Source of the DNA: a virus
Taxonomy: Duplodnaviria > Caudoviricetes
Strand: one strand, 5' to 3'
DNA: 29,953 nucleotides
IMG/VR virus record: IMGVR_UViG_3300042399_000080
Location: 1 to 29,953 of that record
The translations under genes were made by a program, and so were the position numbers. Of the stretch, positions 1-29,953 are shown one piece after another; positions within the stretch are counted from its first letter, which is position 1; every line of letters begins with the position of its first letter. The notes beneath the pieces were generated by a model. It worked only from the letters and a program-made list of their open reading frames with translations. It made no database searches and was not told the DNA's origin.

Positions 1-167
1 CACCAACAGGTAAAAAGGAATTTGCCGTAAACCAACAGGAAAGCGAAGATGATTTACCTTTCTAAAACAACCCCTCGTTGGGCGATAACGTAAAGCGCAA
101 ATTTAAAACTTACAACTATGAGCCAAAACCAACAAATCGCAAACTACCTAAATAAAGGTAGAAAATT
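1..167. repeat. Left copy of imperfect 167-bp terminal direct repeat (circular/permuted assembly overlap)
   Basis: 1-167 matches 29787-29953 except at positions 59, 92, 109, 110, 165. Confidence 0.95.
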
Positions 168-312
168 AACCCCTATTGATGCTTTAAACAAGTTCGGATG
201 CTTTAGATTAGCAGCACGAATAGCAGACCTAAGAAATGATGGAATGAACATAAAAACAACCATTATTAAGCTAAAAAATAAAAAGCAAGTAGCACAATAT
301 TCGGTTAATTGA
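118..312 (+). CDS. Small winged helix-turn-helix DNA-binding protein
   Basis: 64 aa; LTPIDALNKFGCFRLAARIADLR resembles common phage HTH proteins; ACTATG start context. Confidence 0.75.
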   Translation: MSQNQQIANYLNKGRKLTPIDALNKFGCFRLAARIADLRNDGMNIKTTIIKLKNKKQVAQYSVN

Positions 313-23416: not shown

Positions 23417-23424
23417 TATATTTG
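23417..23424 (+). promoter_or_regulatory. -7 promoter box (TATATTTG) for lysis region
   Basis: TAnnTTTG match, intergenic. Confidence 0.6.
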
Positions 23425-23441
23425 TATATAAAATAAAAACT

Positions 23442-23585
23442 ATGATAACAATTAATCAAGAACAAATCAAGGAATTAGAAGCGTTTATTAACACTATCCC
23501 AACTGCTTATGGTTTACCATTATTGCAGTTCTTAGGTAAGTTAAATGCAGAACAAAATCCACCACAAGAATCAACTGAAGCGTAA
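23442..23585 (+). CDS. Hypothetical protein (47 aa)
   Basis: MITINQEQIKELEAFINTIPTAYGLPLLQFLGKLNAEQNPPQESTEA; AAAAACTATG start; TAATG coupling. Confidence 0.65.
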   Translation: MITINQEQIKELEAFINTIPTAYGLPLLQFLGKLNAEQNPPQESTEA

Positions 23586-25183: not shown

Positions 25184-25924
25184 ATGGCAACAACAAAAAC
25201 AAAACGCAGAAGGCTTTTTTTTGACATTGAAACAAGTCCAAACATCGGTTTATTTTGGGAAGCTGGGTATAAGAAAAACATTGACTATTCAAACATAATA
25301 CAAGAAAGGGCAATTATTTGTATATGTTATAAATGGGAAGATGATAAGGAGGTATATGCTTTACAATGGGATGCAAAGCAGAATGATAAAAAAATGCTTG
25401 AACAGTTTATTGAGGTTGCAAATGTAGCTAATGAATTAGTAGGGCATAATGGAGATAAGTTTGATTTAGCTTGGATTAGAACAAGATGCTTATTTCATAA
25501 AATAGAAATGTTCCCAAAATACACAACAATTGATACATTAAAGGTTGCAAGGCAAAAGTTTAGGTTTAACTCTAACAGGCTTAACTATATAGCTGACTTC
25601 TTAGGCATAGGACAAAAGATCAAAACAGAATATAGTCTTTGGAAAAATATTTTATTGCATAAAGACAAAGCTGCAATGGAAGCTATGATTAAGTATTGTA
25701 AAAAAGATGTGGTTTTATTAGAAAAGGTATTTAAAATGCTTTCAAATCATATAGAGCCTAAAACTCATTATGGGGTAATATTTGGGGAGGATAGAGGCAG
25801 TTGTCCAGAGTGCGGTTCGGATGATTTAATTAGAAATAATAAGGTTGTAACGGCTACTGGTTTGACAAGGATACAATTCAAGTGCAAAACTTGTAATAAA
25901 TTTCATTCAAAGACTGATAAATAA
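25184..25924 (+). CDS. DnaQ/RNase H-like 3'-5' exonuclease with C-terminal zinc ribbon
   Basis: FFDIET, GHNGDKFD, YCKKDV exonuclease motifs; CPECG...CKTC. Confidence 0.88.
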   Translation: MATTKTKRRRLFFDIETSPNIGLFWEAGYKKNIDYSNIIQERAIICICYKWEDDKEVYALQWDAKQNDKKMLEQFIEVANVANELVGHNGDKFDLAWIRTRCLFHKIEMFPKYTTIDTLKVARQKFRFNSNRLNYIADFLGIGQKIKTEYSLWKNILLHKDKAAMEAMIKYCKKDVVLLEKVFKMLSNHIEPKTHYGVIFGEDRGSCPECGSDDLIRNNKVVTATGLTRIQFKCKTCNKFHSKTDK

Positions 25925-25925
25925 T

Positions 25926-26117
25926 ATGAGATACCCTAAAAACTTTGCAAAATTGACACCAATACAACAAGAGCAATGGTTAGTTACTAAACTAATTGAA
26001 TTGCACAACTTAGAGCAAGAGATCAAGTTAACCTTAGGCAAAATAAGAGGTGGTGAGAAACTTATATTTAAAGAAATAGACAGACCAGATTTGGCTTTAT
26101 TAAAAGATGAAGATTAA
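25926..26117 (+). CDS. Hypothetical protein
   Basis: 63-aa ORF, tightly packed, AATATG start. Confidence 0.6.
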   Translation: MRYPKNFAKLTPIQQEQWLVTKLIELHNLEQEIKLTLGKIRGGEKLIFKEIDRPDLALLKDED

Positions 26118-26376
26118 AGTTATATATCGTAAACTCGGAAGGGAACAGGCTCACGGCATTGCTGAAAGTGATGGTGTAGTTTATATTGACTCACGGCTAA
26201 AAGGCAAGAAGCAGCTTGAAATCCTATTGCACGAGTGCTTGCATATACTCAATCCAATGGATGATGAAGATGCAATTATTGAGAAAAGTGTAACTTTATG
26301 TAAGGTTCTTTGGCAGCAAGGATACCGAATGGTTGACAATTCTAACGATACACCATTACAAGATGGTTCTAAATAG
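26107..26376 (+). CDS. Small HEXXH metallopeptidase-like protein
   Basis: VYIDSRL....QLEILLHECLH. Confidence 0.7.
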   Translation: MKIKVIYRKLGREQAHGIAESDGVVYIDSRLKGKKQLEILLHECLHILNPMDDEDAIIEKSVTLCKVLWQQGYRMVDNSNDTPLQDGSK

Positions 26377-26392
26377 TTGTTCGTTCATAGTT

Positions 26393-26420
26393 CCTCACCC
26401 CTAAAAAGGTGGGGTTTTTT
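26393..26420 (+). terminator. Intrinsic terminator 1
   Basis: CCTCACC / GGTGGGG stem plus T6. Confidence 0.85.
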
Positions 26421-26423
26421 ATA

Positions 26424-26431
26424 TATCTTTG
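26424..26431 (+). promoter_or_regulatory. -7 promoter box (TATCTTTG) with no downstream ORF
   Basis: TAnnTTTG match between two terminators. Confidence 0.6.
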
Positions 26432-26433
26432 GC

Positions 26434-26489
26434 TTTCATATTGGAGAACTTAGGTTTAACCCTCGCTATTTCCATAGTGGGGGTTTTTT
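26434..26489 (+). ncRNA. Putative ~55-nt small RNA antisense to translation start regions
   Basis: Promoter box, about 24 nt single-stranded segment (TTTCATATTGG...GGTTT), 12-bp hairpin plus T tract. Confidence 0.55.
26458..26489 (+). terminator. Intrinsic terminator 2
   Basis: AACCCTCGCTAT-TTCC-ATAGTGGGGGTT (12 bp with 2 G-U) plus T tract. Confidence 0.85.
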
Positions 26490-26520
26490 ATCGCTCATAT
26501 AAAGTTCAGTTATCGCTCAT
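26488..26520. repeat. 11-bp direct repeat TTATCGCTCAT x2, 22-bp period
   Basis: Copies at 26488-26498 and 26510-26520. Confidence 0.85.
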
Positions 26521-26591
26521 TATAGGCACTAATACTACCATTTATCCCTATTATTTGCCGTTCATCACATTTATTTAAAATAATTGGCTTG

Positions 26592-26625
26592 TTTGATAAA
26601 GTTATAAGGTTTTACCCTATCTTTG
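26592..26625 (+). promoter_or_regulatory. Putative early promoter
   Basis: TTTG (26592-26595) and TATCTTTG (26618-26625) ahead of the small-gene cluster. Confidence 0.65.
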
Positions 26626-26645
26626 AATCCTAAACCAAAAGCAAT

Positions 26646-26837
26646 ATGATATTCAATTTTAAAAATGCAACACCATTGCAAGAATTAAATGCTTATAAAA
26701 ATGGTAAGCATATAAATTTAAAACTATACAATAAAGCATTATCATATTTGAATAATGGGTATAGTTACCAATTGGTAGTAGATAGTTCTAAAGAGCCAAT
26801 AAAAGTATTAAAAGTTATTAAAGGAAATAAATTTTAA
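26646..26837 (+). CDS. Hypothetical early protein
   Basis: 63-aa ORF after promoter; TAAACCAAAAGCAATATG leader. Confidence 0.55.
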   Translation: MIFNFKNATPLQELNAYKNGKHINLKLYNKALSYLNNGYSYQLVVDSSKEPIKVLKVIKGNKF

Positions 26838-26853
26838 ACCAAAACAAACCAAT

Positions 26854-26982
26854 ATGAACAGACTAAAAACTCCACAAGAGAAAGCAAACGAACGCTACAA
26901 AGCTGAAAGCATCAAACCGCTTTACGCATTTATTATTGTATGCGTGGCATTTTTAATTACCGCAATCCTTCAAAACATTTAA
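26854..26982 (+). CDS. Small early membrane protein (42 aa)
   Basis: MNRLKTPQEKANERYKAESIKPLYAFIIVCVAFLITAILQNI; A/C-rich leader. Confidence 0.6.
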   Translation: MNRLKTPQEKANERYKAESIKPLYAFIIVCVAFLITAILQNI

Positions 26983-26985
26983 CCT

Positions 26986-27216
26986 ATGAAAACACCAATG
27001 CAATTACTATTAGAGTACATTAAAACTGCTCACACCTTTACATTCCTTCCAGAACAATTAGCTAAAACTATTGAAGAAAAGTATTTGCCAATGGAAAAAG
27101 CTGATTTAAGAAATGCTTTTGATAATGGGGAAATAAACGTATGGAACGGCAAAAGAGATGAATCTTTTGAATTTGAAGGTGGTATGGACTATTTTAACAA
27201 AACCTATAAAAACTAA
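26986..27216 (+). CDS. Hypothetical protein
   Basis: 76 aa; MKTPMQ.L...MEK.....AF..G...YFNKTYK is a pattern I associate with Bacteroidota phage small proteins. Confidence 0.65.
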   Translation: MKTPMQLLLEYIKTAHTFTFLPEQLAKTIEEKYLPMEKADLRNAFDNGEINVWNGKRDESFEFEGGMDYFNKTYKN

Positions 27217-27219
27217 TTT

Positions 27220-27387
27220 ATGAACGCAATTGAAACCTTTATTTACACATTAGAAACTAAACTAAAGACAATGCCAAGTGGCTATGTAAAAGAAACAGTA
27301 ACCGCCTGTAAGGAATTAGCCGAAGGCATAAAAGAAATCTATGAAAACCCTAATAACAACATTAGTAACGAATCAAATCAAGACTAA
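27220..27387 (+). CDS. Hypothetical protein (55 aa)
   Basis: MNAIETFIYTLETKLKTMPSGYVKETVTACKELAEGIKEIYE...; fills gap, ATG 3 nt after upstream stop. Confidence 0.55.
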   Translation: MNAIETFIYTLETKLKTMPSGYVKETVTACKELAEGIKEIYENPNNNISNESNQD

Positions 27388-27559
27388 CCTACAAACCGAA
27401 GCTGACTCTAAAGGCATAACATTAAGCAAGTTGGTTTATAAAATCCTAAAACAATATGAGCAAACTAATCTATCAAGAGAAACAACTAAAGTTGCACAAA
27501 AGAGCAACAATCCTACTGGAACTGCTAAAACAAGCACAGGGAAGGCAAAATCTATTTGA
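27341..27559 (+). CDS. Ribbon-helix-helix-like regulator
   Basis: LITTLV strand then KTNLQTEADSKGITLSKLVYKIL helices (CopG/Arc-like); C-terminus overlaps the next gene. Confidence 0.5.
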   Translation: MKTLITTLVTNQIKTNLQTEADSKGITLSKLVYKILKQYEQTNLSRETTKVAQKSNNPTGTAKTSTGKAKSI

Positions 27560-27752
27560 GGCTGATCTTGCTGAATGGAGGCGAGGTTTGGATGATACAA
27601 GAACAATGATTAGCGAGGAAGATTTACTAATTAAGATTGCAAGGATGAATGACATCCAGCGCAGAATCCTTAAAAGCTACCATTACTTGATTCTGGACCT
27701 TTATACCTTAACAGAGGACTTTATGTTACCAATAAACCTTTTACATTTTTAA
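27456..27752 (+). CDS. Hypothetical protein
   Basis: 98-aa helical ORF, AAAACAATATG start. Confidence 0.6.
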   Translation: MSKLIYQEKQLKLHKRATILLELLKQAQGRQNLFEADLAEWRRGLDDTRTMISEEDLLIKIARMNDIQRRILKSYHYLILDLYTLTEDFMLPINLLHF

Positions 27753-27753
27753 T

Positions 27754-27954
27754 ATGAAAGCAAAACAAAAAGCAGAATATTTATATAATCAAATGTATAA
27801 TCAAAGACAAATTGGTCCAGAAGCAGCTAAACAATGTGCATTGATATTAGTAAGTGAATTAATAAAGGAAAATTTACGATATGATTATATTCCTTTTGAA
27901 GATAGTAGGTCAGCATTTTATTTAGAGGTAGAAAAAGAACTTAATAAGCTATGA
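27754..27954 (+). CDS. Hypothetical protein
   Basis: 66 aa; KQKA..L...AKQCALI.V.E...EVEKEL.KL; coupled to the next gene. Confidence 0.65.
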   Translation: MKAKQKAEYLYNQMYNQRQIGPEAAKQCALILVSELIKENLRYDYIPFEDSRSAFYLEVEKELNKL

Positions 27955-28388
27955 AAGAAGTACACAAAACGTATATGGCAGAACTTGAAATAGAGGTTTT
28001 GCGAGATAAGAACAAAGAACTAAAAAAAGAAATAAACAGGTTAAAAGACCTATTAGATCAACATTTAAACATAAAAACAACAAGAATGGACAAAGAACAA
28101 CAAAAGGAGTATGCGGTGGAAATAGCCGAAAAAGTGTGTAATTACTATCAGATTAAATATGGACAAATGATGTCCAAATATAGAGGCGAGGAGGTTACTT
28201 TAGCAAGGCAAATGACAATGTACTTGACTAAGGAAAAAACCGAATTAAATGGCGAGGAAATAGCACAAATCTTCAATAGGGATAGAACAACAGTTTTGCA
28301 CTCAATCCAAAAGATTAGGGGTCAATTGTCAAATAAGTTTGATGATACCATAAAAAAGGATGTTTTCAACTTAAATGTGCTTATTTAA
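27951..28388 (+). CDS. Protein with DnaA C-terminal (domain IV) HTH and N-terminal coiled coil
   Basis: VTLARQMTMYL...EIAQIFNRDRTTVLHSIQKI matches the DnaA domain IV signature; no AAA+ domain. Confidence 0.85.
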   Translation: MKEVHKTYMAELEIEVLRDKNKELKKEINRLKDLLDQHLNIKTTRMDKEQQKEYAVEIAEKVCNYYQIKYGQMMSKYRGEEVTLARQMTMYLTKEKTELNGEEIAQIFNRDRTTVLHSIQKIRGQLSNKFDDTIKKDVFNLNVLI

Positions 28389-28420
28389 TTTGGTTATTAA
28401 CACCAAAGTAGTTAATTTTA
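28389..28420 (+). promoter_or_regulatory. Possible promoter with overlapping inverted repeat upstream of bet
   Basis: TTTG (28389-28392), 20 nt, TAATTTTA (variant -7); TTTGGT-N7-ACCAAA palindrome at 28389-28407. Confidence 0.45.
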
Positions 28421-28439
28421 AACTCTAAAACCAACCAAT

Positions 28440-29156
28440 ATGAACGAACAACAACTGGCTAAAAAGCCACAACTTTCGTACACGAAAGATCAAGTAGAGT
28501 TAGTAAAATCGCAGATTGCTCCAGAGGCAACAGTTGATGAACTAAAACTCTTTCTTTATCAAGCACAAAGAACAGGACTTGATGCATTATCAAGGCAGAT
28601 TTATTGCATCCATCGTAATGTAAAAACGCAAAACGGATGGTCTAAAAAAATGACCATTCAAACGAGCATTGATGGATTCCGAGTAATCGCTGAAAGAAGC
28701 GGAAACTATGGTGGACAAAGTGAACCTGTATTTGTAGAACAAGATGGTAAGTTAATTTCTTGCAAGGTATCTGTATTTAGATTTCACGGCGATTTAAGGT
28801 ATGAAGCAGCCGTTGGAGTAGCTTATTGGGATGAATATTGCCAACGAACAAACGAAGGCAAACCAATGGGTTTATGGGCGAAGATGCCACATACAATGTT
28901 AAGTAAAGTTGCAGAAGCATTAGCTTTAAGAAAGGCTTACCCACAAGATTTAAGTGGACTTTATACAGGTGATGAAATGGCGCAAAGTGATGAAAAACCA
29001 GCATACATTAAAACGCACGATAATCTTGATGACTTGGAGTTAGCTATTGACTTATGCATTAGCACAAACGAATTGGCTGAACTTTACACATTGAATCAAG
29101 AATTAGCCGACAAAGAAGTAACTAAATTATTTACCAAGAAAAAACAAACTTTATGA
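28440..29156 (+). CDS. bet: Bet/RecT-family single-strand annealing protein
   Basis: ELKLFL.QA.RTGLD..RQIY, SIDGFRVIAERSG.Y.G, W.KMP.TML.KVAEALALRKAYP..LSGLY..DEM. Confidence 0.9.
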   Translation: MNEQQLAKKPQLSYTKDQVELVKSQIAPEATVDELKLFLYQAQRTGLDALSRQIYCIHRNVKTQNGWSKKMTIQTSIDGFRVIAERSGNYGGQSEPVFVEQDGKLISCKVSVFRFHGDLRYEAAVGVAYWDEYCQRTNEGKPMGLWAKMPHTMLSKVAEALALRKAYPQDLSGLYTGDEMAQSDEKPAYIKTHDNLDDLELAIDLCISTNELAELYTLNQELADKEVTKLFTKKKQTL

Positions 29157-29398
29157 CACCATTAACAAGATTATGGGATTTAAGAGAGGAAGTTAAGTTC
29201 TGGAATTACAAAGTAGATACAAGCTATCCTCAAAACGCAAGTGAAATGATTCATCAATTAAATTTAGCTAAGTATAAACTTAAACTACATAAACTAAAAT
29301 ATTTCCCAGAGTTATTAGATCAACCTAAAAGGGATTATGTTCCTTATCAAATGTTAGCTGATAAATTTGAAGTATTTGAAAACTATTTAAACGATTAA
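29153..29398 (+). CDS. Hypothetical protein
   Basis: 81 aa, ATGA-coupled to bet. Confidence 0.6.
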   Translation: MTPLTRLWDLREEVKFWNYKVDTSYPQNASEMIHQLNLAKYKLKLHKLKYFPELLDQPKRDYVPYQMLADKFEVFENYLND

Positions 29399-29400
29399 CT

Positions 29401-29568
29401 ATGCCTTATTCAACTTGCTGCGGCGCATATACCGATATGGATGAAATCGGAATTTGTCCAGATTGTTTAGAACATTGCGATTGGGAGGATGAAGAAGATG
29501 AGGAAGAATTAGAACAAGATAGACAAAACGAAATAGCATTAGAACAAGAACAATTAAATAAACATTAA
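29401..29568 (+). CDS. Small Cys-rich, highly acidic protein (55 aa)
   Basis: MPYSTCCGAYTDMDEIGICPDCLEHCDWEDEEDEEELEQ...; AACTATG start. Confidence 0.65.
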   Translation: MPYSTCCGAYTDMDEIGICPDCLEHCDWEDEEDEEELEQDRQNEIALEQEQLNKH

Positions 29569-29578
29569 ACTTAAAACA

Positions 29579-29851
29579 ATGATTGTATTAAACATTTGCA
29601 AAGAGGAAATTAACTGGAAAGAAGCTAAAAACGGCAAACACTACGCAAACGTAGCTACTGACTTCTTAAAGCAACCAGATGACAAAGGAAACACGCACAC
29701 AGTATGGAACAACCAAACAATGGAGGAACGAGCAGAAAAGGCTAAGAAAAACTACTGCGGTAGAGGTAAGCAAGTTTCTTATAACGCACCAACAGGTAAA
29801 AAGGAATTTGCCGTAAACCAACAGGAAAGCGAAGATGATTTACCATTCTAA
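29579..29851 (+). CDS. SSB-like protein
   Basis: Acidic C-terminal EDDLPF tail; close to bet; beta-rich N-terminus. Confidence 0.65.
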   Translation: MIVLNICKEEINWKEAKNGKHYANVATDFLKQPDDKGNTHTVWNNQTMEERAEKAKKNYCGRGKQVSYNAPTGKKEFAVNQQESEDDLPF

Positions 29852-29953
29852 AACAACCCCTCGTTGGGCGATAACGTTAAGCGCAAATTTAAAAACTACA
29901 ACTATGAGCCAAAACCAACAAATCGCAAACTACCTAAATAAAGGTAGAAAGTT
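29787..29953. repeat. Right copy of imperfect 167-bp terminal repeat
   Basis: Matches 1-167 with 5 mismatches. Confidence 0.95.

Follow-up and report, generated by a model that had tools for sequence, protein, structure and literature searches.

The window analysed here, a stretch of 29,953 nucleotides of viral DNA, carries a 167-nt terminal repeat and represents a complete phage genome of ~29.8 kb (29,786 nt). Every recognised gene of this freshwater-type phage lies on the + strand; they comprise HK97-type head, siphovirus tail and lysis genes together with RecT, NinG, a replication initiator and a methylase. Boxes of the form TAnnTTTG stand ahead of the window's operons, and unit 1 of the cassette described below was found on three contigs of 3-5 kb that lie in metagenome bins assigned to Chitinophagaceae or Bacteroidota. 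A host within the Bacteroidota, a group described as doing without Shine-Dalgarno pairing, is therefore probable. The start regions and promoters are of Bacteroidota type, in support of the initial annotation. Among annotated phage records, all relatives of the bet gene fell below 60% identity and the HExxH protein had no relatives, so no cultured model was found. Elsewhere in the genome, a stand-alone DnaA domain IV protein with a coiled coil is encoded at 27951-28388 (Pfam Bac_DnaA_C), and a ~90-nt leader with a small hairpin (322-414) lies between a promoter box at 314 and the HNH/replication genes. The promoter-box variants TAACTTTG, TAATTTTG and TAAATTTG occur just 5' of structural genes (window 4925, 6454, 9113, 11030 and 17680) and possibly form a late promoter class, the TATATTTG and TATCTTTG boxes marking early units.

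Two tandem units, each capped by an intrinsic terminator, follow the last gene of the lysis/accessory operon (Table 1). Their order in the window is HExxH stop codon, unit 1, terminator 1, TAnnTTTG box, unit 2, terminator 2, variable spacer and early promoter. The stop codon abuts unit 1 so closely that the G of its TAG is the first base of the 26376-26389 stretch, which pairs over 14 bp with the bet start and is followed by the terminator 1 hairpin. A second, overlapping part of unit 1 (26383-26392) pairs over 10 bp, including one G-U, with the start of ORF 118, and base 26382 is a C/G polymorphism. Unit 2 begins with a 5' seed (26436-26444) complementary to the starts of bet and ORF 26854; a GGTTT anchor 5' of its terminator complements AAACC-type motifs upstream in the leaders.

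Table 1 Features of the two-unit cassette and its predicted targets (window coordinates).
Feature	Position	Strand	Basis or detail
Start of ORF 118, conserved predicted target site of unit 1	114..123 (repeated at 29900-29909 in the terminal repeat)	+	complementarity
Winged-helix protein, 64 aa (Pfam HTH_39)	118..312	+	profile match
Conserved promoter box (TATATTTG) 5' of the lysis/accessory operon ending in unit 1	23417..23424	+	5' of the 23442 gene family in 77/82 loci
HExxH metalloprotease-like protein, 89 aa, last gene before the cassette	26107..26376	+	phrog_87, E 7e-5
Unit 1 pairing region, predicted 3'-UTR RNA	26376..26392	+	complementarity
Intrinsic terminator 1 (hairpin 26393-26414 plus T tract)	26393..26420	+	23 distinct hairpin sequences in relatives
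Bacteroidota -7 box TAnnTTTG of unit 2	26424..26431	+	predicted start ~26436
Unit 2, predicted ~55-nt sRNA	26436..26490	+	promoter box, seed, terminator
Intrinsic terminator 2, sequence variable, stem kept	26458..26490	+	43 distinct hairpins in relatives
TAnnTTTG box of the early operon	26618..26625	+	box scan
Start of early ORF 26854, second predicted target of unit 2	26849..26858	+	complementarity
Start of bet, predicted target site of the unit 2 seed (28435-28443) and of unit 1 (28439-28452)	28435..28452	+	predicted mostly single-stranded
RecT/Bet single-strand annealing protein	28440..29156	+	family match

Unit 2 is preceded by a strict TAnnTTTG box in 71/78 distinct units (near-match in 5, none in 2). 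As this box is described as lying at -12 to -5 from the transcription start (PMC9723704), unit 2 would start near 26436, at the edge of the conserved seed, and the bases 5' of this predicted start vary among relatives. No TAnnTTTG box stands 5' of unit 1 in the window, so that unit 1 would here be a 3'-UTR RNA. Relatives of one sister lineage (B, see below) equip unit 1 with its own promoter box; its predicted start is the G of a conserved GTTGT in 13/13 rows, and in all eight new contigs having a unit 1 promoter (8/8); the 14-nt match of the window begins with this G. With the box positioned as in the cited account (PMC9723704), predicted starts thus coincide with conserved 5' edges. The initial annotation had named late transcription as the source of unit 1, a timing made uncertain by the TATATTTG promoter 5' of its operon (Table 1) and by the separate promoter in lineage B. 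A sigma-70 promoter scan gave only shuffle-level signal and was set aside. The terminator stems are preserved, with two-sided changes at 8/15 pairs (the window and 25 of 31 lineage-A references, 26 sequences). In predicted folds, the unit 2 seed is unpaired. Coding sequence further 5' hides the unit 1 seed in a 121-nt fold; this seed is unpaired once freed, so it would need translation or processing to become available. Four of twelve sequence runs were examined; these consisted of assembled contigs of flat depth, carrying no strand or end information and possibly derived from DNA.

Several neighbouring elements vary among relatives. Terminator 2 and the early promoter are separated by a hypervariable, AT-rich spacer (window 26490-26535; also L003, L011, L031, L048 and L210), which ranges from 0 to >1 kb and is built from short motifs repeated at ~21-nt spacing, an 11-mer being present twice in the window; it could hold decoy or protein-binding sites. 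One locus (L025) has an extra promoter-plus-terminator unit between units 1 and 2, right after terminator 1; this unit lacks a CAT seed, and even its best pairing with a phage start (-14.7 kcal/mol) is not convincing. A conserved element 5' of the early promoter (window 26536-26625; L450-L487), which is sometimes tandemly doubled and occurs also in the cassette-less sister group described below, might be an operator or an origin element. The lysis/accessory operon opens with a 47-aa gene that belongs to no known family and follows the 23417 box (23417-23585).

The initial annotation started from an exact 14-nt antisense match to the bet start region, and this match is real: 26376-26389 and 28439-28452 are perfect reverse complements, and the latter contains the bet ATG (28440). 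Its length does not set the match above background, as the 29,786-nt genome holds five exact inverted matches of 14 nt and one of 15 nt in an empirical, unshuffled count from this single genome. It rises above chance because of its position and the comparative evidence. When unit 1 was compared with 53 start regions in the window, bet gave the best duplex (-20.8 kcal/mol) and the ORF 118 start the second best (-13.9 kcal/mol). An 8-nt core of unit 1 also complements the start of ORF 27220 (-12.5 kcal/mol), as had been annotated, but the pairing is not conserved in relatives, and it looks incidental because the ORF 27220 family reaches only a median rank of seventh among starts for unit 1 in the window's lineage. 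Among Chitinophaga start regions, 0/176 match the pairing strength of the window's targets.

To place the cassette in a comparative frame, we fetched relatives via bet, the HExxH protein and the winged-helix protein. Unit 1 with terminator 1 was present in 200 loci, 81 of them distinct (many contigs were fetched twice), and unit 1 sequence defined five lineages, A (the window's) to E. The cassette is kept in all five of these divergent lineages of integrase-less, Bacteroidota-type siphophages, with its layout retained while the hairpin sequences turn over (Table 1), and this two-unit arrangement lends support to the annotated idea of a cassette of anti-start-codon units. Pairing ranks were obtained by comparing duplex energy against all ORF starts of the same locus (~22-28 starts); haplotypes and contigs are related, and P-values for covariation and ranking overstate the support. 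A sister group with HExxH and winged-helix genes has the two-unit layout in 0/28 distinct loci (32 examined), 23 of which have no terminator-like hairpin within 300 nt, so the cassette is dispensable. The triplet ACT precedes the winged-helix ATG in 45/57 loci with the cassette versus 0/28 without, a hint drawn against a single pattern-found clade as control. A pattern search combining the promoter and the seed of unit 2 proved too loose and was rejected; it returned 120 loci, 12 with a full box and only 4 with cassettes.

The deeply conserved partner of unit 1 is, judged by predicted pairing, the start of the winged-helix gene, not bet. This start ranks first in 10/11 pairs of lineage B, 4/7 of C, 4/8 of D and 1/1 of E, and in lineage A it is first in 13/38 and among the top three in 30/38. 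The recombinase start, which had been annotated as the target, ranks first in 7/14 pairs of A, 2/11 of B, 0/10 of C, 0/11 of D and 0/1 of E and thus fails as a conserved one. The 3' part of unit 1, which is conserved, matches the winged-helix leader and not that of bet. Lineage B forms Watson-Crick helices of 10-17 bp over the winged-helix AUG, and both a one-base indel and one substitution of unit 1 are mirrored in the target. In start-corrected family tables (94 and 104 loci), the winged-helix and recombinase families stand at the head for units 1 and 2, respectively. Same-lineage pairing of unit 1 with the winged-helix start exceeds cross-lineage pairing only in B and E, not in A, C and D. 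We also ranked ten previously unused contigs, comprising all new non-A loci in which the three genes were found (five B-like, two near-identical); the winged-helix start ranked 2, 2, 1, 5, 3, 4, 3, 2, 1 and 2 for unit 1, within the top three in 8/10, and the recombinase start reached the top three in 6/10. The exonuclease start is also high for unit 1 (median rank 2-8), and part of the ranking may therefore reflect AAC-rich N-termini.

ORF 118 lies directly 5' of a promoter box and the replication genes. The predicted fold of its product is confident (pLDDT 92.9); a sequence search gave no solved relative, and a fold search returned generic winged helices (best Stf76, E 0.012) and unnamed phage proteins. 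The 3'-5' exonuclease gene (start at window 25184) belongs to the same operon as unit 1, and its start is a recurrent third partner, weak in the window, with homologs in this role at L307-L325 and L373-L390.

Within lineage A, the data support a real interaction between unit 1 and the bet start. Across 62 haplotypes unit 1 has one common variant, C in 41 and G in 21, and bet ATGAACGA accompanies C in 37/41 but G in only 1/21. Of the 82 variable sites in the HExxH gene and unit 1, none is as strongly associated with the bet start as this variant (r2 0.69), the next reaching 0.41. Conversely, the bet start is the top partner of the variant among 2,528 overlapping 9-nt windows from 21 gene families (r2 0.63, median 0.08), followed by a ninG window at 0.60 that is linkage alone. 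The covariation with the first bet codons that the initial annotation had asked for is thus present in the window's lineage. Other alleles fit less uniformly: with bet ATGAATGAC/ATGAACGAC, G pairs better and is found in 9/13, and with ATGAGCGAA, G is found in 11/11 haplotypes although C is predicted to be stronger (-20.8 vs -17.4 kcal/mol). The winged-helix duplex is always stronger with G, the window's C allele weakening it to -13.9 from -20.2 kcal/mol. Since the C/G variant tracks the bet start best, unit 1 probably hits both the winged-helix and the bet starts in this lineage. G may represent an older, winged-helix-directed state, with C trading some of that pairing for a perfect bet site.

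By the same kind of comparison, unit 2 and not unit 1 is the conserved RNA against the recombinase. Its predicted pairing with the recombinase start ranks first in 8/11 pairs of lineage B, 11/15 of C, 8/11 of D and 0/1 of E; in lineage A it is first in 4/34 and in the top three in 30/34. Shuffled controls gave z-scores of -3.7 to -5.1 in all five lineages, and no cross-lineage mean is better than the corresponding same-lineage mean (same-lineage means -13.4 to -15.2 kcal/mol). The lineage D seed has no CAT and retains pairing via G-U. On the ten held-out contigs the recombinase start ranked 3, 2, 6, 1, 1, 3, 1, 3, 10 and 2 for unit 2, within the top three in 8/10, the winged-helix start reaching that level in 1/10. 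Window starts pairing with unit 2 below -11 kcal/mol are those of 26646, 26854, 27456, 27754 and bet, all early genes; a separate 11-nt match to ORF 27754 was discounted, as it lies mostly 5' of the predicted unit 2 start. The recombinase slot itself is occupied by RecT in the window and L208, by ERF in three tested loci from B, D and E, and by a third, unnamed family (phrog_19042) in L212 and L236. As the pairing is kept through these switches, unit 2 follows the start region and not the protein. The swapped proteins (28440-29156, L316:7020-7583 and L212:7878-8489) keep a shared C-terminal helical tail of ~45 aa.

We consider it likely, with a probability of about 0.72, that the two units are trans-acting antisense RNAs that mask the AUGs of the phage's own early DNA-transaction genes. 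From the sequences, layout, conservation and covariation observed, we infer transcription, unit 1 processing, repression and timing along the following lines. Both units would pair across the AUG and thereby block ribosome loading. The main effect of unit 1, predicted to be a 3'-UTR RNA in the window and an independent sRNA in one sister lineage, would be to damp the winged-helix gene; in the window's lineage, the C variant of unit 1 would add the perfect bet site. Unit 2 would be made from its own host-type promoter from infection onward and limit the recombinase slot and a few of the first early genes. The most likely role of the cassette would be that of an RNA brake on early recombination and replication proteins in lytic growth. 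As a general class, the units are probably trans-encoded base-pairing sRNAs, two in tandem: at the motif level they have a promoter or 3'-UTR origin and an intrinsic terminator, and they carry an accessible seed, in unit 1 only once freed, with conserved and covarying complementarity to start regions.

Phage RNAs related to this arrangement fall into several types. P4 CI is a phage small RNA of the c4 kind, encoded on the same strand as its own mRNA target and acting on it, and OOP and sar overlap their targets. In its published account, P1/P7 c4 is likewise a phage small RNA on the same strand as, but apart from, its target, with short complementarity to its own mRNA (PMC8198154). It is described as acting on icd-ant in a temperate phage, where it serves lysogeny together with the C1 protein repressor (PMC8198154), whereas our units come with no repressor or antirepressor seen, as a tandem pair with a simple seed-plus-terminator layout aimed at recombinase and winged-helix start codons. 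The Rfam C4 covariance model had no match at E<=5 in 25500-29953, nor at gathering score in 5 relatives, and the setting of c4, a temperate phage that has a protein repressor and in which c4 shares its operon with icd and an antirepressor, is not the one seen here. GibS of Bacteroides thetaiotaomicron resembles the units in its unstructured seed, intrinsic terminator and pairing across the start codon, in a phylum reported to lack Shine-Dalgarno use and Hfq/ProQ, and is reported to bind across start codons in vitro without a protein co-factor (PMC7366714). However, GibS is host-encoded, 145 nt long and directed at metabolic targets (PMC7366714), while the units are phage-encoded, self-targeting and ~45-55 nt; Rfam searches gave no GibS-type match. 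Lambda OOP, aQ, P22 sar and BTP1 STnc6030 also repress phage developmental genes post-transcriptionally, but are described as antisense RNAs that pair perfectly over long stretches, aQ and STnc6030 overlapping their targets (PMC12197685); our units pair imperfectly from afar, lying on the same strand as their targets at distances of 0.4-3.5 kb. Rfam matches to sar (E 4.7, covering only terminator 2) and anti-hemB (E 0.42) were rejected as terminator look-alikes. By analogy, the cassette would work like P1 c4 and GibS while belonging to neither family.

The alternative that survives best, although improbable, is that the same RNAs serve immunity or latency as a module consisting of RNA only. 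Host promoters would express both units while the phage persists in a carrier state without integration, and the units would silence the early genes of resident and superinfecting phages; seed and target would then diversify like immunity types. Seeds and targets do differ by lineage, the imperfect matching of alleles would fit an escape-and-chase cycle, and the cassette sits directly before the early promoter of a phage whose scanned proteins include no integrase, repressor or antirepressor families; P1 c4, for its part, is reported to be needed for full antirepressor repression (PMC8198154). A carrier state sits less well with the genomes themselves. Tyrosine integrase (PF00589) was found in 0/5 near-complete relatives, no prophage-like copy of the cassette occurred on a long host contig among 15 genome hits (three had unit 1, all on the short binned contigs mentioned above), and the window's ParB-like gene adjoins the methylase with no further partition gene recognised. 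The seeds are also short for tight silencing.

Very unlikely is the proposal of the initial annotation that unit 1 is directed at bet alone and, being transcribed late only, switches off the recombinase. The perfect 14-bp duplex, the best among the window's starts, and the allele covariation in lineage A are what this proposal would explain, yet it leaves unaccounted for the low bet ranks in lineages B to E, the fit of the conserved 3' part to the winged-helix leader and the host-type promoter 5' of the operon. Chance or composition is slightly less probable again: the U/G-rich leaders of terminators look like complements of the A/C-rich starts of Bacteroidota genes, G/U-rich RNAs pair readily with such starts, and the linkage could be population structure. 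The six inverted matches of at least 14 nt, the linkage background of up to 0.60 and the non-specific pairing of long unit 1 variants (lineage C row) all point that way; they are countered by target-specific ranks, the shuffle z-scores, the matched indel, the held-out contigs and the dedicated promoter, and for unit 2 this explanation is largely refuted. Least probable of all is that the motifs are start codons of tiny minus-strand genes or that the RNAs really act on host mRNAs. The units do resemble phage start regions with short ORFs when the minus strand is read, but we reject such micro-genes on ORF lengths of 2 to 54 codons with no shared frame, loss of the ATG in 12/14 lineage-D unit 2 variants, T tracts and a promoter that indicate the + strand, and the lack of a minus-strand TAnnTTTG box within 25426-27797, while covariation with phage genes needs no host target.

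In the literature searched, which included few subscription journals, and in Rfam, we found no description of this cassette, and small-RNA control in Bacteroidota phages is nearly undescribed within that literature. Read as antisense RNAs against early start codons, the units offer natural seed-target covariation across an abundant phage family, a regulatory RNA that tracks a gene slot through swaps between unrelated recombinases, and compact templates of ~55 nt with which to test start-codon silencing without Shine-Dalgarno pairing or Hfq. They also point at the uncharacterised winged-helix protein as a likely control node. A bolder idea, which we regard as unlikely, is that RNA alone runs the decision between lysis and quiescence, and superinfection, in these integrase-less, repressor-less phages. 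If true, seed-target co-evolution would set immunity types like those of lambdoid repressor-operator pairs, and anti-AUG RNAs would address gene slots by their start regions, whatever recombinase family fills them.
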